Source: Deinococcales bacterium
GTDB lineage: Bacteria; Deinococcota; Deinococci; Deinococcales; JAAFIG01
NCBI GenBank assembly: GCA_043778225.1
Contig: JAYWGM010000056.1
Coordinates: forward strand, 20,594-84,593
Direction of reading: 5' to 3'
Length of the DNA: 64,000 nucleotides
Below the pieces are notes generated by a model, which was not told the origin of the DNA, did no database searches, and saw only the letters and a list, made by a program, of their open reading frames with translations. Shown here piece by piece: positions 18,598 to 28,732 of the stretch; the stretch's first letter is position 1, and each line of letters starts with the position of its first letter. Position numbers and translations under genes: made by a program.

Positions 18598-21180
18598 TTA
18601 AACACCATCTTTAGCAAGGTCATTGAATCTAACGTGCTGCGAATGAAATTGCAACTCGACCGTGCCAACCGGACCATTGCGCTGCTTGCCAATAATAATT
18701 TCGGCAATGCCTTGTTTTTCTGAGTCCTTGTGGTAATACTCGTCGCGGTAAATAAAAGAAACAAGGTCAGCGTCCTGCTCAATTGCTCCAGATTCACGTA
18801 AATCAGACAGCATCGGACGATGATTGGGGCGCGATTCGACCTGACGGCTTAACTGACTCAGTACCACCACCGGAATGTTCAGTTCTCGAGCCAAGGATTT
18901 TAGCCCACGTGAAATGGTCGAGATTTCCTGCTGCCGATTTTCGCCGCCGCCTTTGGATGTGCCACTGCCAGACATCAGTTGCATATAGTCAATGACGATT
19001 AAATGTAAATCTTTTTCTGCCATTAAGCGCCTCGATTTACTTCGTAATTCGGTAACAGTTAAATCCGAAGCATCATCTATAAAAAGCGGCGCTTCGGACA
19101 ACTTGCCAGCCGCATTGACCAAGCGTTCAAAGTCTTTTTCGTTCAGCGCACCCTGCCTCACCCGATTCATGTCAACTCGAGCTTCGGCGCACATCATTCG
19201 CAGCACCAATTGTGAAGCGGGCATCTCGAGACTAAAAACCGCCACGGCTTTGTTGTAGCGCACGCTGATATTTTGGGCGATAGAGAGTGCAAAAGCCGTG
19301 TTGTGAACACAAATATCTTGGGCGATAAAGTTAGAGCCATCTGGAACAGTTAGGTCGTAGACTTGTTGAGGCTCGAGCGGGACAATAGAAACAATTTCAT
19401 CCCAGTACAAATCTGGACTCGAGAGAAATGCGAGTCGCTCATCATTGAGGATTTGATTGTAACGTGCCAGCCTTGAACGCGGTAAGTTGCGTTTTGTATG
19501 AGGGTTAAACCCAGTAGCTTGATTAACTTCGCCACTTTGGATGCACAATTGGGTTAAAGATAGGTTTGCTCGAGCCGCAGCAGCTTTGACAAAAGCCCAT
19601 GCTTCTTTTGGAACATGACCGAGATTGCTAAGACCTTTTGACAGTGTAAATTCTCTGGTAGCTTTCTCACCTAGCCAACCAATTTGATTTTGATAGATTT
19701 GTATAGATTCAGGGTCAGTTATTTCGACCCGCCAGCTACGAGGTGTTTTTTGCCAGAATTTGGCTATAATTCCAAACCGAGTTAATGCGTGTTGAACATC
19801 TCGAGCAAGGAACTCTGAAGCAACTGTAAATTCAATTCGAGCCTGTTTACCCATGGCATAAATCGTTCCATCACAAGAAAAGAGAATTCTTAAAAATTCG
19901 CCGAGCTGCAATTGATTAAATCGCCAAACCACATTGGGGAATCTTTTCTTGAGTGCTGATTTACCCCACAAGCTTAAAGCACGCAGCCAGTCAGTGACAG
20001 GATTATTTGCATTTTTTCGATTACCTCGAGTCCATGTATGAGAAATACGAAAATCAATACCATCTCGGTGCATTTCAACACTCGGGAATTGTTGCTCGAG
20101 TATACTCTTGAAGTCTTGTATAAGTTCGGGGTCTGTATTTGTCCAACGTGGAGATGTTTGAGTCAATCCACCTTCAGCGATAAAGTAAGCCATCAGACGA
20201 ATAAGTTCGAATGGTGTACTCGAGTCGTCTCCAAAACTCGGTACGGCTCGAGGAATAGCGATTTTGTCTCCAACCGTTAAATCATGAAGCGGAGTCCAGC
20301 CTTGCACGGTTAAAAACGGATGATGACCTGTCACTTCAACTTCGCGTCCTAATTTTGTGGTGACCCTAAAAATAGGTTTAATTCCACTGTCTATCCAAGC
20401 CGAAATTCTGGTCGGTCGGACTGTGCCATTGTCTGAGATTCCATAAACACAGCTTCTTTTCTCGAGAATGAATTGCTCGAGTGGAATGCGTTCTCCAGTG
20501 TGTGGGTCATCTATGAGCGTATGTGCCGTTAAGCACTTGCCCATACTTGGACGCGCTGCAATGACATTCAAAGACCCCGGTTGTAAGCCCGTTGTCATTT
20601 CGTCTAAGTCCCTGAAACCTGTTGCCACACCAGTTATAAAGTCGCTGTCACTCGAGATTTTAGAAATGTACTCAAAGGTTTCGTTGACCAGCGTATTCAT
20701 GTTTTGAAAAGGTTGCTGACTTTTTTTCTGCGCCACTTCAAAGACCAGTTTTTCGGCTCTGTCCATCAGTTCTTCGGCAGGTGCAGCTTCGTCGTAAGCC
20801 ATCTGCATAATTTTGCTCGAGGCGTTAATTAAGCCGCGCAGATTGCTTTTTTCGACCACAATATCAGCATAGAATTTGGCATAAACACTGGTCGGCACAC
20901 CATCGGATAAACCCACCAAATACGCCACGCCGCCGACTTCCTCGAGTTGGTCCTTGGTGCGGAGTTCTTCGATGAGTGTGACTGAATCGGCTGGGTTGCC
21001 TCGAGAAATCAGGTTTTCGATGGCGGCAAAGATTTTACGGTTGGCTTCTTTGTAAAATTGGTCGGGTTTGAGCGTACCTTCTAAGCTGTGATAAGCATCG
21101 TTGTCGAGTAAAATACTTCCCAGTACGCTGGCTTCTGCGTCTAGGTTATGCGGTGGGATACGTCCGTGGAGTTCTTCCAT
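18598..21180 (-). CDS. dnaB: replicative DNA helicase with intein
   Basis: IPPHNLDAEASVLGSIL, TGFRDLD, ARPSMGK/TAFAL, FSLEM, IDYMQL, LSQLSRQVESR, SDLRESGAIEQDAD, KQRNGP. Confidence 0.98.
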   Translation of the reverse strand: MEELHGRIPPHNLDAEASVLGSILLDNDAYHSLEGTLKPDQFYKEANRKIFAAIENLISRGNPADSVTLIEELRTKDQLEEVGGVAYLVGLSDGVPTSVYAKFYADIVVEKSNLRGLINASSKIMQMAYDEAAPAEELMDRAEKLVFEVAQKKSQQPFQNMNTLVNETFEYISKISSDSDFITGVATGFRDLDEMTTGLQPGSLNVIAARPSMGKCLTAHTLIDDPHTGERIPLEQFILEKRSCVYGISDNGTVRPTRISAWIDSGIKPIFRVTTKLGREVEVTGHHPFLTVQGWTPLHDLTVGDKIAIPRAVPSFGDDSSTPFELIRLMAYFIAEGGLTQTSPRWTNTDPELIQDFKSILEQQFPSVEMHRDGIDFRISHTWTRGNRKNANNPVTDWLRALSLWGKSALKKRFPNVVWRFNQLQLGEFLRILFSCDGTIYAMGKQARIEFTVASEFLARDVQHALTRFGIIAKFWQKTPRSWRVEITDPESIQIYQNQIGWLGEKATREFTLSKGLSNLGHVPKEAWAFVKAAAARANLSLTQLCIQSGEVNQATGFNPHTKRNLPRSRLARYNQILNDERLAFLSSPDLYWDEIVSIVPLEPQQVYDLTVPDGSNFIAQDICVHNTAFALSIAQNISVRYNKAVAVFSLEMPASQLVLRMMCAEARVDMNRVRQGALNEKDFERLVNAAGKLSEAPLFIDDASDLTVTELRSKSRRLMAEKDLHLIVIDYMQLMSGSGTSKGGGENRQQEISTISRGLKSLARELNIPVVVLSQLSRQVESRPNHRPMLSDLRESGAIEQDADLVSFIYRDEYYHKDSEKQGIAEIIIGKQRNGPVGTVELQFHSQHVRFNDLAKDGV
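19300..20535 (-). mobile_element. 412-aa intein with LAGLIDADG homing endonuclease, inserted in the DnaB Walker A motif
   Basis: Starts CLTAH after GK; block B VTGHHPF; LMAYFIAEG and FLRILFSCDG motifs; ends VYDLTV...ICVHN followed by T. Confidence 0.95.
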
Positions 21181-21183
21181 AAT

Positions 21184-21636
21184 TTATAGAGGACGTGCCA
21201 TGACCACAACCCAAGCGCCGTTGTACTGGGCTGCACCGACTTCGGTGTAATTGGCGTTGGTCATTGCCCAACAGTGAACTTTTGAATTTTTCCACCACGA
21301 AACGGCTTTAGAACTGCCGCCATTGCCCAAAAAAATAATTTCCGACATTCTCGAGTATCGGTAGCCAGCCCGAACAACTCGAGTCTGTGGTCCAACGCCT
21401 TGAAAATAATGAGAGACAAAGCGTTTTGAACCCATGTTGAGGGCGTGTTGTCGGGCGGCTTTGGCAAGTGTGTTGTTCCAACGCATTGCACCGATTCTTG
21501 TGCCACCCGCGCCATTACAGCGTGTGCCAGAAGTCCTCAAGGCATTGATTTGCGCCACCACTCGAGCTTCTAAGCTACTTTGGGCAGTCGCAAGACTCGA
21601 AATTAGGACAATTGAAATAAGGATAAGCAGACGCAT
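21184..21636 (-). CDS. secreted CAP/SCP domain protein
   Basis: Signal peptide; INALR...WNNTLAKAARQHA...SH...W..SKVHCWAM...YTEVG. Confidence 0.9.
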   Translation of the reverse strand: MRLLILISIVLISSLATAQSSLEARVVAQINALRTSGTRCNGAGGTRIGAMRWNNTLAKAARQHALNMGSKRFVSHYFQGVGPQTRVVRAGYRYSRMSEIIFLGNGGSSKAVSWWKNSKVHCWAMTNANYTEVGAAQYNGAWVVVMARPL

Positions 21637-21684
21637 GGCTCGAGATGATAACCTAATTTTTGGCTCGAGTCATGCGCCTTGGTT

Positions 21685-22095
21685 TTAGGGCTTAATTTTG
21701 AAAAAAGAATTACCATCTACGCTGTGAGTATCGCTGCCAAGTATCCGCCACATCACCACATATGTGCCAGTTTTAAGTTTGGGCTTGAGGCTAATTTGCA
21801 CATTTTTGGTTGTGCCTTTGGCTTGGGTACTCGAGTCGGCTCGAGCGGTGGCATCGTTTTTTAGGGCGATTTTACTGTTGACAAATGTCCGCAGTGCGCC
21901 GTTGCTGAGTTCGCCAGTGTAGGCATAGACCTTGAAGGTACTAAACGAGGCTTCGATGGCTTCGTTAAACGTAATCTCGATGGTTTTTGGAGCGCTGACC
22001 GTCGTGCCTTTACCGGGGACAATTTTGACCACTTTAGAGTGGGCGACGGCAAGGCTTAGGAGCAAAAACAGGGTCACGGCAACAATTTTTTTCAT
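21685..22095 (-). CDS. copC: copper resistance protein CopC
   Basis: Signal peptide ending AVA|H (N-terminal His), ITFNE, GTYVVMWRILGSDTHSVDG. Confidence 0.9.
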   Translation of the reverse strand: MKKIVAVTLFLLLSLAVAHSKVVKIVPGKGTTVSAPKTIEITFNEAIEASFSTFKVYAYTGELSNGALRTFVNSKIALKNDATARADSSTQAKGTTKNVQISLKPKLKTGTYVVMWRILGSDTHSVDGNSFFKIKP

Positions 22096-22104
22096 GGGTT
22101 TCCT

Positions 22105-22250
22105 TTATTCGGTGTGGCACGACCTTGACTATTTTTGGTGCGGCAAAACGCTGTCTATTTCGGTGCGGCACGACCTTGACTATTTTGGTGCGGCACGACC
22201 TTGACTATTTTGGTGCGGCAAAACGCTGTCTATTTCGGTGCGGCAAAACG
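22105..22250 (-). repeat. six-unit 25-nt tandem array spanning the mbnH stop and the copC RBS
   Basis: Core GGTG(C/T)GGCA at 22111, 22137, 22162, 22187, 22212 and 22237, with two linker variants. Confidence 0.9.
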
Positions 22251-23213
22251 AGGGTCTTTAATAAATTCGTAATCGGTCAGGGCTTTTAAGAATTCGATTA
22301 AATCCTGCATTTCGGCTTTGCTTAAACCCATCGGACGCATCAGTGCGTCCACATTGGGGTTGTCTTCGCCACCTTTGTTGTAATGCTCAAGGGTCTTCTC
22401 GAGGGTTGGGATGCTGCCATTGTGCATATACGGTGCGGTCAGGGCAACATTACGCAATGTTGGCACTTTGAACTTCCCAGCGTCCTCTTGGCGGTTGGTG
22501 ATTCGGGCTAAACCAAGGTCGGGATTGGTTTTGCTTAAACCTGTGTTGTGCAGTGTTTCGGTCGTGAAATTAAAACCATTGTGGCAATGAAAACAATCGC
22601 CTGTTTCGCCAAAAAAGAGTTCCATGCCACGAATCGCGGCTGAGGTCATGGCTTTTTCGTTGCCAGCACGGTACTTATCGTAAGCGCTGCGGTTGGTGAT
22701 AAGCGTGCGCTCAAAACTGGCTATTGCTTTGGTGATGTTAAGCATCGTTACGCCATCTGCAAAAACCTTCTTAAAAGCAGTGGCATAAGCTGGAATTTGT
22801 TTGAGGCGTTGTACCAGCACACTGGGTTCAATCCCCATTTCGTCATGAGCCGTAATCGGACCCATGGCTTGTAACTCGAGGCTGGGGCTGCCACCTTCCC
22901 AAAAGTAACTTTTGCGCCATGCCACATTGCCAAGACTTGGCGCGTTACGGCTGCCTTTTTGCCCTCGAATGCCCGTTGAAACCGCGTTACCGGCGTTGGA
23001 AAAAGCAAAGGCTTGAACATGGCAAATCGAGCAAGAGAGCGTATTATCAGCAGACAAGCGTTGGTCATAAAAAAGTTTGCGTCCCAACTGAATTTTATCT
23101 GGAGTCTGAGGATTGTTCTCGGGAATCCGAACAGCAGGAAAGTACGACTGGGCTAAAACAGTGCAGCCCAAAAAAAACAGTAAAAATAAAACTCGAGATG
23201 GCAGGATTTTCAT
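22230..23213 (-). CDS. mbnH: di-heme cytochrome c peroxidase, MbnH/MauG family
   Basis: LGRKLFYDQRLS, CSICH, RNAPSLGN, CFHCH, FKVPTLRNVALTAPYMHNGS; immediately downstream of mbnP. Confidence 0.85.
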   Translation of the reverse strand: MKILPSRVLFLLFFLGCTVLAQSYFPAVRIPENNPQTPDKIQLGRKLFYDQRLSADNTLSCSICHVQAFAFSNAGNAVSTGIRGQKGSRNAPSLGNVAWRKSYFWEGGSPSLELQAMGPITAHDEMGIEPSVLVQRLKQIPAYATAFKKVFADGVTMLNITKAIASFERTLITNRSAYDKYRAGNEKAMTSAAIRGMELFFGETGDCFHCHNGFNFTTETLHNTGLSKTNPDLGLARITNRQEDAGKFKVPTLRNVALTAPYMHNGSIPTLEKTLEHYNKGGEDNPNVDALMRPMGLSKAEMQDLIEFLKALTDYEFIKDPRFAAPK

Positions 23214-23235
23214 AGTACCCCAACGTATGGCTGTC

Positions 23236-24075
23236 TTACTGCGCGATTGTCCAAGCACCAAGTAAATTCAAATAGGCTTGCCCGATGTTTGCCCCGCCGT
23301 GCATGACTCGTAGCGCGGCTTGGCTTAAATCCCAGTTTGCAGCCCCGTTTGGTCCTTTACTAAAGACTTTCTCGAGGTCAAGGTTGATGGTGCTGCTGTT
23401 TTTACCGTTCACAGCAATTTTAATTTTATTGGCAACCAAATCAAACTGATTGATATTTAAGCGCCAATTGTCTGTTCCCATGTGCAGTAACCATGGCTGA
23501 CTCTTGCCTGCTACAGTTGTTTTTCCCTCGAGCCGAAAGAAAATATAGCCCGGATTCCATGCCCAGAACATCCCACTCTCGAGTCCGAGCGGCATTGGGA
23601 TGGTACTGGCATCACGGTGATTGAGGTCTTTAGGTACACCAATTTCAAAGCGAATGCCTTTGTACTCGGCGGCTGGGGCAGAAATGCTAAAAATGGTTTC
23701 GCCCGTGGTGGTCTTGGCATTGAACATTTGTCCACCCTCGAGCATTTTTCCTGCCATGCTGGTGTTGGCGGTTGCACCACTGTGGTTTATCATCCCGCCA
23801 GCATTCAAACCCTCAAACGAAGTCAGGCTTAAACCCGCCACCGCTTGGCTCGAGCCATCGGCTTTGACCAGTTGGACATTGGAAACATAAAATTTAAGTA
23901 AGTCCACACTGTACTCTGCGCCGCCAGACGTTCTGTAGGTTTTGCCTAACTCGAGCGGTGCATTGCCCATTCGTAAATTGACTTTTAATTCGTGTTTAAC
24001 CATTGCGTTCTGAGCGCTCGAGAGACCGAGTAAGGCAATCGAAACCAAAGTTGTGCCGAGTAATAATTTTTTCAT
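23236..24075 (-). CDS. mbnP: MbnP-family copper-binding protein
   Basis: Signal peptide; LKFYVSNVQL, FEIGVPKDLNH, MFWAWNPGYIFFRLEG (WxW motif), LHMG. Confidence 0.85.
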   Translation of the reverse strand: MKKLLLGTTLVSIALLGLSSAQNAMVKHELKVNLRMGNAPLELGKTYRTSGGAEYSVDLLKFYVSNVQLVKADGSSQAVAGLSLTSFEGLNAGGMINHSGATANTSMAGKMLEGGQMFNAKTTTGETIFSISAPAAEYKGIRFEIGVPKDLNHRDASTIPMPLGLESGMFWAWNPGYIFFRLEGKTTVAGKSQPWLLHMGTDNWRLNINQFDLVANKIKIAVNGKNSSTINLDLEKVFSKGPNGAANWDLSQAALRVMHGGANIGQAYLNLLGAWTIAQ

Positions 24076-24509
24076 AAGATTTCCTTTTTGAACCTTTGAA
24101 GATAAAGCGTGCAAATAAACACGCCAACCATCATCAGGCTCGAGATAACACACCAAAAGCACCATGCCAGAATCACAAAGGCTTCTAAGTAAGTAAAGTA
24201 GAGGTAACTCAGTACCCCAAGGCTCGAGATTGCCAATAAGATTTTTGGTGCTACCGTCTCGAGCGGGCGTTCTTGTAAAATCGCATAGGTGGCTGTGCCA
24301 AGGAGTAGCAAAAACACCGCAATGCCATAAGCCGAAACTGGGATGCCAAGAATTTTAGAGTATTCACTGGCTTGGACTTTATCGCAACCTGCAATTGGAC
24401 AGACCAGACTCGAGTATCCAAGGCTGTGCAGCAGTAAGTACAGCGCCACCAATGCACCCAACAATGCAAACACAGCACTGAACATCAGGGGTGCGAGTGG
24501 ATTTTTCAT
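24072..24509 (-). CDS. vitamin K epoxide reductase (VKOR) family membrane protein
   Basis: CPIAGCDKVQASEYSKILGIPVSAYG, YLEAFVILAWCFWCVIS; four TM segments; start overlaps the dsbA stop. Confidence 0.93.
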   Translation of the reverse strand: MKNPLAPLMFSAVFALLGALVALYLLLHSLGYSSLVCPIAGCDKVQASEYSKILGIPVSAYGIAVFLLLLGTATYAILQERPLETVAPKILLAISSLGVLSYLYFTYLEAFVILAWCFWCVISSLMMVGVFICTLYLQRFKKEIL

Positions 24510-25216
24510 TTTGTACCGACTTTTTCTAGAATCGCTTTGAAGGCTTCGATGGGCAGCGCCCCAGCCACCAAATAACCGTTGACCACAAAAGAAGGCGTGG
24601 AATTCAAACCAACTTTGCGTCCCATGTTTACATCGGCGGCAATTGCATCTTTGGCATTGTCTGACTTTAGGCACTCGAGAAAACTGGTTTTGTTCAATCC
24701 AGCAAATTCAGCAAATTGCTGGCTGGCAGTTTCACTCGAGGAATTGCTCCATTGGCTCTGCCCACGAAACAAAATGGCTTTGTAATTCTCAAAACGCCCG
24801 CTTTGGTTGGCACACGCCGCTGCTTGTGCTGCCAGTGGTGCGTTGGCGTGTTGCGCCAACGGAAAATCGCGGTAGGCAAACCGCACCAAACCAGTGTCTA
24901 TAAAATCGGTTTTGAACTGACTTTCTGTTTGGGTGGCAAACGTAGCACAAGCTGGACACTGATAATCCGAGAATTCAACAATCGTATTTTTGGCGTTGCT
25001 CGAGCCACTGATAAAACGTGCGCCTTCGAGGGCATTGACGGCAACTTTACGCAACTCGAGATTCTGAGTTGTGCCGTTATTGGTATACGAAATGTTCAGG
25101 GTTTCGCCGTCATCGCTTGGGGCTTGTGGACGTGTGACAAAGAAAATAATCCCAATGCCAAGCAGCGCCACGCCCACCAAAGCAACCAAAAAGGTATTGC
25201 GTTGTTGAGAATTCAT
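24506..25216 (-). CDS. DsbA/BdbD-type thioredoxin-fold oxidoreductase
   Basis: N-terminal membrane anchor; EFSDYQCPAC, RDFPL, STPSFVVNG (cis-Pro loop); GGAGGA RBS. Confidence 0.92.
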   Translation of the reverse strand: MNSQQRNTFLVALVGVALLGIGIIFFVTRPQAPSDDGETLNISYTNNGTTQNLELRKVAVNALEGARFISGSSNAKNTIVEFSDYQCPACATFATQTESQFKTDFIDTGLVRFAYRDFPLAQHANAPLAAQAAACANQSGRFENYKAILFRGQSQWSNSSSETASQQFAEFAGLNKTSFLECLKSDNAKDAIAADVNMGRKVGLNSTPSFVVNGYLVAGALPIEAFKAILEKVGTK

Positions 25217-25251
25217 AATGTCCTCCAGCGTTAATTCAAATAACTTGGTAT

Positions 25252-25596
25252 TCAAATTAACGCTGGCGGCGCTCGAGCCAATCTGGTCAGTGGTACTCGA
25301 GCCACAATCTGGAACTCGAGGTTTAAGTTGTGCAAAATAAGCTGTGATGCTCGAGGTAGACTGTTTTCTAAAGTTAAAACTGCAAAAGTGCTTGAACCAC
25401 AAAAATCACAGTGTTTTGGGTGGGCATGGGCGGCTGACCATTGTGGGGTTTCATCACTCGAGGCGTGAGTGTGCAGTCCGAGTTGTAGCACTCGAGATTC
25501 AAAGCCCGGTGCAAGATGGTGTGTACTGAACCAAAGCATCAAGATTGCCAGTAAACTGGCTCGAGCTAAATAGAAAACTCGTTTTTGCCGACGCAT
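25252..25596 (-). CDS. DUF2946/CruR-like leader protein with CxxC and a C-terminal RAPP motif
   Basis: Basic-hydrophobic N-terminus, His-rich segment, HCDFC, ends LARAPPALI*; first ORF of the copper operon. Confidence 0.75.
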   Translation of the reverse strand: MRRQKRVFYLARASLLAILMLWFSTHHLAPGFESRVLQLGLHTHASSDETPQWSAAHAHPKHCDFCGSSTFAVLTLENSLPRASQLILHNLNLEFQIVARVPLTRLARAPPALI

Positions 25597-25629
25597 AGAA
25601 AAAGTATAAGCCCTAAAGTGAAGGACAGA

Positions 25630-26412
25630 TTATGAAATTTTTCGGGTCTTGGTAAATAACCGAGCGGTGTTGCTGACAAAATCGGTGTCGTAGACTTGGG
25701 CTTCTTGGTTTTTGGTGTCCAGCACTTCGCGGGCATCAAAGACAAAACACGTACCTTCATAATCAGCTTCAGCATTTTCGATGTTCTGGAAATAATTTAA
25801 GATTCCACCCTCGAGTTGTAAAATCTCAAAGCCACGCATGGCTTGCCAAGCGGTTGTTTTTTCGCAGCGAATGCCACCCGTACAGTACATCGCTACGGTT
25901 TTATTTTGGGTTTGCCATTCGGGCAAATGAGTCTCGAGATAGCTTGCGAAATCCCTGAAATTATCGATATTTGGGTTAATTGCGCCCTTAAAATGTCCGA
26001 GTTCAAATTCAAAACTGTTGCGGTTATCAATTAGAATCACATCGTCGCGCTGCAATAATTCACGCCAAATGATTGGCGAGACATCTGTTCCCTTAAAGTT
26101 TTGGGTATCTATGCCAGCCACCCCAAGTGGCACGATTTCGGGTTTAACTTTAACTTTGAGGCGCTTAAAGACTTGTTGGCTACAAGTGGTGCGTTTATAA
26201 AAAAGTTTTGCAAATCTCGAGTCTGTTTCTAGGGCATCGCGCACGATTTGAAGCGCTTGGCTTGAGCCACAGAGCATTCCATTGATGCCTTCGGTCGCCA
26301 ATAAAATCGTACCCAGAACTTCTGCTTCTAAACAGACTTGCTCGAGGTGGTCTCGAGTCTCGTTTGGGTTCTCGAGCTTGATAAAGCGGTAAAACGCATC
26401 ATGGAACAACAT
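25630..26412 (-). CDS. trhO: rhodanese-family tRNA uridine(34) hydroxylase
   Basis: GTILLATEGING, FKRLKVKVKPEIV, IDNRNSFEFELGHFKGA, MYCTGGIRCEK, LEGGILNY, CFVFD. Confidence 0.9.
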   Translation of the reverse strand: MLFHDAFYRFIKLENPNETRDHLEQVCLEAEVLGTILLATEGINGMLCGSSQALQIVRDALETDSRFAKLFYKRTTCSQQVFKRLKVKVKPEIVPLGVAGIDTQNFKGTDVSPIIWRELLQRDDVILIDNRNSFEFELGHFKGAINPNIDNFRDFASYLETHLPEWQTQNKTVAMYCTGGIRCEKTTAWQAMRGFEILQLEGGILNYFQNIENAEADYEGTCFVFDAREVLDTKNQEAQVYDTDFVSNTARLFTKTRKIS

Positions 26413-26476
26413 CAGTCTATCTTACAATGTTCCCCAGAACAAACGCCCTGATGATTGTGGTGTTAAATGTAAATCT

Positions 26477-28732
26477 ATGCTGAGCGTTTGTTTAATCGGT
26501 CTACCTCAGTTTTTTTATGCCGAACAAGCCCTGAATGTCAAGGGTAAGCCAGCTACATTGTTGGCGTTGATTGCGGCACATCATCCGACTGGTTTAAGTC
26601 GCGCCCAAGCCGAGCGCTATTTATGGGGGCGCGAAGCTGCTCAGAATTTACGTCAAGCAATTTATAGTTTGCGTCAATTGCCTTTTGCGAACGATTGGCT
26701 GCTGGTTTCAGATAAGTTGCTTTTGCAAAATATAACCTTGATTAGCTCAGAAACAGACCTTGAATTGATGCAGGGTATGGAAAGTTTACTCAGCGATGAA
26801 GGACTTGAGTGGCTGAGTATCCAACGCGAAAAAAAGCGTTTAGAACGCCGCAGTCACCTCCTACAAACTGCCCTACAAAGCCAAGGTCAAGCTCAGATTC
26901 AACTGCTTGAGGAGTTATTGCAACTTGACCCACTGCATGAAAGTGCAGTTCAGTTATTGATTTCGGCTTATTTGCAAAATCGGGCTCGAGTCAAAGCGAT
27001 TGAGGTATTTGAGCGTTTCAAAACAGTTTTACGAACCGAACTGAATGGCTCACCACTGGCAGCTACAGTCGCCCTGCTCGAGACGGGTAGATTGGCTATC
27101 CCAGACTTTGAGCGTTTTAAGCGAGCTTATGCCGTGGTTGGTGTTTTGGATACAGCTTTAATCGCTAAACTACTTGAACGTGACGAATTAGAAGTGGCTG
27201 AGGTTTTGACTGGCTTTGAATTGCCCAACTTGGAAAAAGTACGCTCCGAAACCCCACAGGCGATTTGGCAACTGTTGAACCGCCGTGCTGCACTAGCCTT
27301 AGCCGATTCAGCAGAAAGAGCCGCTAGGCACTGGCTTGAGGCAGGGGAGACCACTCAAGCAGCCACGGCTTGGCTGGATTTTGCCGAGCAGCGTTTTGGT
27401 ACAGATTTAGGTCAGTCTTTGGCGCTGAGTCAAAAAGTGCTTGGACTCGAGACCAACATCACTTTGCAGCTTCGGTCATATTTGCTTCAACAGCGTATCT
27501 TTGAAATTCAAGCCAATTGGCAGGCTTTAGAGGCTTTGGTTGGTCAATTATTTACCTTGGCGCGGACAAGTCAAGACGACAATGTTGAATTTGCTGCCTA
27601 TCAAGTACAGGCTTCTTGGCTGCTGCGAACAGGTCAAGCCCAAACTGCCCTAGAAGTAAGTTTAGATGCGACTCGAGCCGCCAAACGCTTAAACGACCCT
27701 GTAAAACTCGAGCAGGTAAGTTTACTGCAAGGCACTGCTTATTTGCAGCTTGGGAATTTCCCAGAAGCCAAAAAACTGCTCGGTTCATTGGTTCAGGCTA
27801 CAGCCCCAACAACCCGTTTATCGGCTTGCTCCAATTTGGGGGCTATCGAGGGGTTCAGTAACAATTTAGAAAGCGCCCTTGATTATTTTGAACAAGCCTT
27901 GCAACTGGCGCGGCAAACCCAAAACTTAGCGATTTCGGCACGGGTGGTACAAAACATCGCCACGACTGCCGAAAAACTCGAGCGCTTTGAACGTGCCAAG
28001 ACTGGTTGGCGCGAAGCCATTGGGATTGCTGAGCAAATATCCGATTCACACAGCTTGGGTGTGGCATATGCCAATTTAGCCCTGACCCACTTTAAGGCTG
28101 GGCAAGTCGGTTTAGCCATGAACACTGCCCTCGAGACCCTAGAAATTCAACCACTCAGTCCAGCCGCTCGGTTTACTGCCCTGAACACCCAAGCGGCGGT
28201 GTGGCGCTATCTCGCCGATGAACAAGCAGCCCTAGGGTTGTACCAATCGGCTTTAGAACTTGCCCAAAGTCAAGAAAATGCCCGTTGGATTGCCGATACC
28301 GAGTGTAACTTGGCATTTATGGCGTGGTTAGCCAACCCAGCCCTCGAGCCAGCGTTTTTAGCCAGCTTAGAAGCCCCCGCCACCGCCAATGTGATTGAAG
28401 AAATGAAACTCGAGTACGGGCTGTACAGCCATAACCCAATTCAGATTCGGGCGTTGTTGCCCAAACCCCTCGAGCGTCCGAGGCGGCGTTTAATCCACGC
28501 CATTGTTGAAGTGCGCCTAGCCATCCTCGAGCAAACAAGCACCGATGCAGATTTAGAAGCCCTGCTGAAGGCTGAGCCATTCCTAGAAACCCGTTTTGGT
28601 TGGTTGGTGCTTGCCCAATGGCTCGAGCAGCAAGGTCTGGATAGCCGTCAAGCCAAGGGTGCAGCCCGCCGAGTTTTTGCACAGCAATGCCAAGGTTTAC
28701 CGCGTTCCATAACTGCATTGACGCTCGATTGA
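26477..28732 (+). CDS. SARP/BTAD-domain transcriptional activator with TPR repeats
   Basis: N-terminal wHTH (LLALIAAH...LSRAQA..YLW...NLRQAIYSLR); BTAD (LLQLDPLHESAVQLLI...LRTELNGSP); C-terminal TPRs. Confidence 0.88.
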   Translation: MLSVCLIGLPQFFYAEQALNVKGKPATLLALIAAHHPTGLSRAQAERYLWGREAAQNLRQAIYSLRQLPFANDWLLVSDKLLLQNITLISSETDLELMQGMESLLSDEGLEWLSIQREKKRLERRSHLLQTALQSQGQAQIQLLEELLQLDPLHESAVQLLISAYLQNRARVKAIEVFERFKTVLRTELNGSPLAATVALLETGRLAIPDFERFKRAYAVVGVLDTALIAKLLERDELEVAEVLTGFELPNLEKVRSETPQAIWQLLNRRAALALADSAERAARHWLEAGETTQAATAWLDFAEQRFGTDLGQSLALSQKVLGLETNITLQLRSYLLQQRIFEIQANWQALEALVGQLFTLARTSQDDNVEFAAYQVQASWLLRTGQAQTALEVSLDATRAAKRLNDPVKLEQVSLLQGTAYLQLGNFPEAKKLLGSLVQATAPTTRLSACSNLGAIEGFSNNLESALDYFEQALQLARQTQNLAISARVVQNIATTAEKLERFERAKTGWREAIGIAEQISDSHSLGVAYANLALTHFKAGQVGLAMNTALETLEIQPLSPAARFTALNTQAAVWRYLADEQAALGLYQSALELAQSQENARWIADTECNLAFMAWLANPALEPAFLASLEAPATANVIEEMKLEYGLYSHNPIQIRALLPKPLERPRRRLIHAIVEVRLAILEQTSTDADLEALLKAEPFLETRFGWLVLAQWLEQQGLDSRQAKGAARRVFAQQCQGLPRSITALTLD

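Follow-up and report, generated by a model that had tools for sequence, protein, structure and literature searches.

The window, a stretch of 64,000 nucleotides from a Deinococcales bacterium (contig JAYWGM010000056.1 of assembly GCA_043778225.1), carries an open reading frame of 114 aa at the head of the gene order dsbA, vkor, mbnP, mbnH and copC, followed by a CAP-domain gene and an intein-bearing dnaB; trhO lies upstream (Table 1). The first-pass annotation had described a TATACT box, an export-like N-terminus, a His-rich linker, HCDFC, a terminal ARAPPALI* and a gap of 35 nt from the leader stop to the dsbA ATG (25216), and all of these were present, on the minus strand; a plus-strand reading of the same interval was dropped, since it contained many stops. 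The cargo that it had named, DsbA-VKOR-MbnPH-CopC, was confirmed by matches to the Pfam families Thioredoxin_4/DSBA, VKOR, MbnP, CCP_MauG and CopC; against TIGR04052, the mbnP-like protein scored below that model's cut-off. The genome also encodes Rho and a heme-copper oxidase subunit.

Table 1. Leader, regulatory elements and cargo genes in the window
Feature	Coordinates	Strand	Basis or remark
Predicted -10 element TATACT (leaderless promoter)	25603..25608	-	6 nt before leader ATG 25596
Leader ORF, probable diverged DUF2946 member (CruR/CutF-like)	25252..25596	-	Pfam PF11162, ortholog L016, coding selection
Hydrophobic segment, residues 7-23, predicted export-signal or signal-anchor-like	25528..25578	-	Hydropathy; AlphaFold2 helix
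His-rich linker, residues 26-62	25411..25521	-	7 of the leader's 8 His
C63-D-F-C66 (CxxC), candidate copper site	25399..25410	-	Invariant, 47-row alignment
R108-A-P-P111 arrest motif	25264..25275	-	41 residues past CxxC, 3 before stop
Predicted mRNA hairpin over dsbA Shine-Dalgarno	25222..25269	-	18-bp core and 2 outer pairs
Shine-Dalgarno GGAGGA of dsbA	25221..25226	-	Sequence
dsbA-like membrane-anchored thioredoxin-fold protein (CPAC)	24506..25216	-	PF13462 E 2e-38, PF01323 E 2e-15
VKOR, start overlapping dsbA stop	24072..24509	-	PF07884 E 8e-23; sole VKOR found in genome
mbnP-like copper-binding protein, WxW (WAW), start overlapping vkor stop	23236..24075	-	PF20243 E 4e-35
mbnH-like di-heme peroxidase	22230..23213	-	PF03150 E 5e-55; TIGR04039 297 bits, cut-off 363
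copC	21685..22095	-	PF04234 E 1e-17

The leader frame and its family

HCDFC occupies residues 62-66 of the leader, and ARAPPALI* positions 107-114 and the stop codon. H57 and H62 were invariant in an alignment of 10 rows, as were P110 and P111 in one of 47 rows. The N-terminus is basic (MRRQKR) and leads into hydrophobic residues 7-23, with a best 17-residue Kyte-Doolittle mean of 1.95. AlphaFold2 modelled residues 2-28 as a helix (pLDDT 93-97 over residues 1-20) and predicted no compact or globular fold for the leader (pTM 0.33; pLDDT 55-58 over residues 41-80). Comparison with four same-genus orthologs indicated that the frame is under coding selection, with pS of 0.70-0.78 and pN of 0.30-0.51. 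Six of the 26,872 stop-to-stop frames of at least 60 aa in this genome end in R[AG]PP, and two of the 26,872, the leader being one, combine this end with a CxxC 38-47 residues upstream. The second such frame (contig C1) was rejected as a chance occurrence, as it lacks a signal-like N-terminus and lies antisense to a long gene near that gene's end, and no second leader was found in this genome using a wider pattern and a profile. The dsbA frame is itself open for 62 codons 5' of its ATG (25213-25402, minus strand), overlapping the leader in another frame, with no sign of use.

The first-pass annotation had proposed a profile search for DUF2946. Against Pfam PF11162, the leader aligned over profile positions 2-117 of 117 with 17.6 bits (E 0.007), below the cut-off of 23.7, whereas its syntenic ortholog L016, which is 50% identical, scored 24.2 bits and lay above it; the cut-off was passed by 3 of 9 relatives of the leader. 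We built a search profile from ten Deinococcota leaders, and this profile matched 47 cluster representatives, of which 17 of the 46 scanned passed the PF11162 cut-off. It matched 105 of 364 Deinococcota genomes, widening the family in this phylum from one row of a supplementary table (PMC9426467) to a set that Pfam partly misses. By transitive sequence homology, the leader is probably a diverged member of DUF2946 (CruR/CutF).

The score below the cut-off, and a word-indexed protein search with the leader that returned one match only (63% identity), would suit a frame without function, or one that encodes a free copper-binding protein, beside which the hairpin described below would be incidental. 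The coding selection and the conserved promoter argue against this reading, as do the lack of a predicted globular fold and the terminal RAPP, a motif otherwise avoided by proteomes (PMC12992588), and we consider it extremely unlikely. The frame is very probably a stalling leader that acts in cis.

Of 90 distinct phylum loci inspected, 89 came out of a longer list of profile matches and one was found beside a VKOR gene. We kept 87 complete loci; in one of the other three the contig ended within the locus, and the remaining two had RSPP or RASP in place of the motif. The terminal motif in the 87 was RAPP, RGPP or HAPP, and the distance from the CxxC to this motif was 41-45 residues (41-42 in 79), a spacing that the profile used favours. 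HAPP replaces RAPP throughout one genus (L019, L020, proteins P0004 and P0009-P0015), with the CxxC and a 42-residue spacing kept. Since the Arg is critical in studied arrest peptides, HAPP leaders may stall weakly or differently.

A TATACT or TACACT box was found 6-7 nt ahead of the leader start in all six same-genus loci. More widely, TANNNT occurred at a gap of 5-7 nt in 49 of the 87 leaders, compared to 7 of 87 at control gaps of 12-14 nt. The modal gap for TANNNT across this genome was also 6 nt (seen in 250 of the 2,077 long ORFs, with other gaps accounting for about 35 each), and leaderless starts are the norm in the phylum (PMC12340547). The predicted leaderless start of the leader is therefore ordinary for both genome and phylum. 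A weak hairpin (25626-25610, followed by TTATACTTTT) had been flagged as terminator-like and was set aside, as its z was only -1.4 and its T run shares bases with the conserved -10 box.

Genes behind the leaders

YcnI/DUF1775 was the first gene behind 49 of the 87 leaders, MbnP behind 10, CopC and PCuAC behind 7 each, YtkA-like behind 3 (2 of them weak), DsbA behind 3 and CopD behind 1; the remaining 7 had no assignment. A copper gene lay directly behind the leader in 77 of the 87 loci, and among the 80 assigned first genes there was no oxidase or efflux component. DsbA and VKOR were found downstream of the leader in five loci, all from the window's family, within the 0.65-4.9 kb (median 3 kb) of downstream DNA examined per locus. 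Four of these are of the window's genus, and the fifth, in another genus, is arranged leader-copC-copD-like-dsbA-vkor. In genera g3 and g5, dsbA-vkor lies away from the leader, with no leader in its 1.5-kb flanks. As judged from gene order, it is copper handling that stays associated with the leader, and DsbA-VKOR is a family-level addition.

Several features of the surrounding DNA were recorded. Between mbnH and copC, beginning within the last codons of mbnH, a 25-nt unit is tandemly repeated about 5-6 times, its two variants alternating (22108-22257). The mbnH-copC gap measures 134 nt in the window, compared to about 9 nt in L016 and about 270 nt in L017, and therefore looks lineage-specific. 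The CAP-domain gene (21184-21684, minus strand) and dnaB lie 3' of copC on the same strand, and a TATCAT box ending 8 nt upstream of the CAP start may give them a promoter of their own. The intein of dnaB (18598-21180, minus strand) has LAGLIDADG domains, and a related intein-like stretch is present on contig C32 (80120-80836). At L031:1825-2016 (G004), the leader stop is directly followed by what looks like the C-terminal half of a copC-like gene, with an intact copC next, which reads as a mid-operon deletion or an assembly join.

A predicted hairpin over the dsbA Shine-Dalgarno

An SD-masking hairpin, for which the first-pass annotation had suggested folding the mRNA, was predicted at the junction of leader and dsbA, with an 18-bp core. 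Its 5' arm (25266-25249) consists of the codons for Pro111, Ala, Leu and Ile, the stop and 3 nt, and its 3' arm spans 25242-25225. The fold, which corresponds to inverted repeat I3, had a predicted energy of -32.4 kcal/mol (z -5.0), and none of 200 shuffles was as stable. The 35-nt spacer between leader and dsbA is almost fully paired in the predicted fold, and in the free mRNA four of the six bases of GGAGGA had a predicted unpaired probability of at most 0.01. No terminator was called at the hairpin, and the bases after it read GGACAUUAUG instead of forming a U run; Rfam returned nothing at gathering score over 21000-27000. A pattern scan of metagenome contigs gave 168 matches, none of which was confirmed, so that there is no close copy to provide covariation for the 18-bp helix. 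The DNA stretch occurs unchanged in two DNA contig sets of one study, which may be its source. Our literature search did not find an SD-masking hairpin behind Deinococcota DUF2946 leaders, and supplementary datasets may still list such loci.

When a ribosome footprint was forced onto the leader, the predicted cost of opening the dsbA RBS fell from 20.1 to about 5.5 kcal/mol. Opening was seen only with the P site at codons 107/108-114, a range that includes the stall position P110. The drop in opening cost (15.3 kcal/mol) was reached by none of 25 synonymous recodings, and among 190 ordinary gene pairs from the same genome no drop was as large as 10 kcal/mol. With the footprint on the last leader codon the RBS was open as well (3.7 kcal/mol), and a terminating ribosome would thus suffice. 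This would be in keeping with a leader that senses no metal and either monitors secretion or simply couples translation, its hairpin being opened by every ribosome that passes or terminates. The cargo proteins all look exported, and RAPP leaders of sec genes exist (PMC10951233). However, the CxxC is invariant at a fixed distance of 41-42 residues, and copper genes are the neighbours in 77 of the 87 loci. We regard a switch that does not sense metal as very unlikely. The arrest peptides SecM, ApdA and ApdP, which monitor secretion and head sec/yidC genes, differ from the leader here in carrying no metal motif (PMC10951233).

To gauge recurrence, the tail arm of each locus was compared with foreign tail arms for pairing against the RBS region of that locus, a test used instead of a GC-matched control that was too small (23 pairs, 4 of them high GC). 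The own arm ranked in the best 5% in 17 of 24 loci with at most 75 nt from PP to ATG, a bin that was set after the folds were seen and that holds kin, the loci tested falling by eye into about six or seven lineages. Later-fetched short-spacer loci gave 9 of 13. Little sign of pairing was seen at longer spacers, with 9 of 63 loci in the best 5%. The window locus had the strongest own-arm pairing (z -8.2). The pairing arms differ in sequence between lineages, and in several of these the SD is among the paired bases. Under a stricter criterion fixed ahead of the second batch (spacer at most 65 nt, drop at least 5 kcal/mol), 5 of 17 loci in the second batch and 9 of 14 in the first qualified, against a background of 5-12 of 190. 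The 18-bp helix of the window was not reproduced in the two other dsbA-first loci. In G002 the own arm was no better than foreign arms (z +0.5; drop 3.6 kcal/mol), and in G007 the spacer is about 340 nt long and the footprint had no effect. This long spacer (L017:3143-3482) contains palindromic elements, which we take to be REP-like, and a duplicate of the leader's last codons.

The distance from PP to ATG exceeds 110 nt in 36 of the 87 loci, with pairing at background level, and resembles the 162-nt spacer of CruR. Rho is present in the genome, and the read-out might be dominated by transcription, with stall relief exposing the mRNA to Rho, transcription ending, and the hairpin being a pause site or side feature. 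The short and almost fully paired spacer of the window speaks against this, as does the placement of the pairing on the SD in several lineages. An excess of C over G did not discriminate, being seen at 31 of 36 long and 20 of 24 short spacers. We consider dominance of a Rho read-out distinctly unlikely here, and the predicted hairpin is probably what reads out the stall.

Input, read-out and direction of the putative switch

Only two DUF2946 leaders have been dissected so far, and these work in opposite directions with different read-outs. CruR (Bp2923) of Bordetella pertussis, a DUF2946/PF11162 member, shares with the leader here an export-like N-terminus (predicted here), the CxxC, RAPP three residues before the stop and the first place in the operon, and it has also been reported without a compact fold. 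The two differ in the spacing from CxxC to RAPP, which at 41 residues is 4 below the 45 of CruR, where the change given as tolerated is -2 (Roy et al., PMC9426467). CruR further has a 45-nt 5' leader rather than a predicted leaderless start, a 162-nt spacer with Rho termination rather than a 35-nt spacer with a predicted SD-masking hairpin, and a TonB-dependent transporter rather than DsbA-VKOR as its first cargo. CutF of Rhodobacter capsulatus (cutFOG) resembles it as a DUF2946 leader with a short spacer and a stem-loop, predicted for the locus here, that shields the SD until the stalled ribosome opens it (PMC9973294; 10.1101/2025.02.05.636593). CutF is EF-P dependent and has CxxxC and PPP instead of CxxC and RAPP. 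When copper is in excess it induces a detoxifying oxidase, whereas the cargo here is of acquisition type; unlike in CutF, the anti-SD arm here is formed by the leader's own last codons. The locus is an extension of a known mechanism, in which CruR-type motifs are combined with a predicted CutF-type RNA switch, and sensor and read-out therefore look modular. What is added here is the predicted hairpin read-out for Deinococcota DUF2946 leaders, and the clean helix in a 35-nt spacer makes sensor and read-out separately testable by a few point mutants.

RAPP/RGPP uORFs also precede DsbA/thioredoxin, YcnI and PCuAC genes, as with Streptomyces SLIV_27375. They share the C-terminal motif, a localization signal (predicted here) and a conserved Cys pair with the leader here, and are likewise followed by a thioredoxin-fold or copper-chaperone gene, although SLIV_27375 itself has four predicted transmembrane segments and non-CxxC cysteines (PMC12992588). 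The word Deinococc is absent from the main text of that report and from the supplements searched. Homology, motif conservation, gene context and the predicted SD-masking hairpin all support the view of the first-pass annotation that the frame heads a copper operon as a cis-acting leader of the CruR/CutF type. Its claims to novelty did not hold: Roy et al. (2022, PMC9426467) had reported Deinococcus homologs with CopC and MbnPH-like cargo, Fujiwara et al. (2025, PMC12992588) had raised a link to DsbA and disulfides for RAPP uORFs, and Ozturk et al. had described the SD-shielding stem-loop of CutF (PMC9973294) and proposed disulfide-driven release (10.1101/2025.02.05.636593). The occurrence in another phylum, the cargo and the disulfide idea are therefore all precedented.

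In the explanation that we favour, a ribosome translating the leader would arrest at P110/P111 of RAPP, as in CruR, where toeprinting placed Pro-Pro of the arrested chain in the P and A sites (PMC12992588). Since RAPP arrest places the first Pro in the P site (PMC10951233), P110 would occupy it here. Stalled there, the ribosome would sit on the 5' arm of the hairpin and, as the folding energies suggest, free the dsbA RBS; because the leader's last codons are predicted to fold onto this site, the stall likely corresponds to cargo on. The overlapping start and stop codons of dsbA, vkor and mbnP could carry the switch downstream through translational coupling, to which Rho could add polarity. Copper at the nascent CxxC would then release the ribosome, as it does in CruR, the hairpin would close and the cargo would be off. 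The CxxC would lie just outside the exit tunnel at arrest. A CruR-type input would in this way be wired to a CutF/SecM-type output, with DsbA-VKOR read as a passenger added to the copper operon within the window's family.

Copper is likely to be the main signal. As to direction, YcnI and the CopC/CopD-domain protein YcnJ of B. subtilis support growth under copper limitation (PMC13344008; PMC8424229), MbnP binds copper once MbnH has modified its WxW (PMC11951088), and CruR-headed operons are copper-repressed or starvation-induced (PMC9426467). Because the cargo is of this copper-limitation and copper-binding type, and by analogy with the CruR-like motifs, we lean towards copper turning the cargo off. 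For the scheme as a whole, from a RAPP stall that frees the dsbA RBS to its relief by copper at the nascent CxxC, we would put the chances at about even.

Copper could instead prolong the stall and open the hairpin, as in CutF, so that the cargo is on in copper excess and DsbA-VKOR, CopC and MbnPH serve envelope protection. DsbA-like proteins take part in copper tolerance (Scs system), and the leader retains its export-like N-terminus. An SD-masking stem with a short spacer is, moreover, the CutF read-out (PMC9973294). The motifs, however, are those of CruR and not the CxxxC and PPP of CutF, and the first cargo genes are of acquisition or chaperone types, with no oxidase or efflux component among the 80 assigned. 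These observations make the opposite direction unlikely.

The suggestion of the first-pass annotation that the CxxC may report envelope disulfide status, in feedback with DsbA/VKOR, found weak support among the loci, where DsbA was first in 3 of 87 and DsbA-VKOR present in 5, compared to copper genes in 77. In such a circuit, a periplasmic CxxC oxidized by DsbA would release the stall, DsbA-VKOR would thereby switch off its own production, and copper would compete for the cysteines. dsbA would indeed be the gene directly gated here, and DsbA-VKOR occurs in leader-headed copper operons of two genera at different positions. A disulfide-driven release has been proposed for CutF (10.1101/2025.02.05.636593), and DsbA/thioredoxin genes are enriched behind RAPP uORFs (PMC12992588). 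On the other hand, the CxxC is invariant everywhere, also outside the one family with DsbA-VKOR; the dsbA-vkor cassette stands apart from the leader in genera g3 and g5, and this genome has another DsbB-DsbA pair. At the stall, C66 would be only 44 residues from the P site, which is marginal for periplasmic exposure. We judge disulfide feedback to be improbable. The same low expectation applies to a broader picture, in which a single CruR-type sensor in Deinococcota might serve two read-outs, the hairpin where the spacer is short and another where it is long. DsbA-VKOR would have been captured here, and the nascent CxxC would weigh copper against periplasmic oxidation by the gated oxidase, giving a self-regulating disulfide sensor at the level of translation.

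A second copper/disulfide cluster, copC-dsbB-dsbA, lies at G000:C74:1914-3460 (locus L084), and the 1.9 kb upstream of it contained no CxxC-RAPP leader. The two disulfide-generating systems found in this genome each adjoin copC. In three related loci, a gene beside mbnP (L016:5691-6092, L019:5950-6376 and L020:2187-2618) encodes an exported product of about 135 aa that has a conserved Cys pair, is absent from the window and is a possible DsbA substrate.
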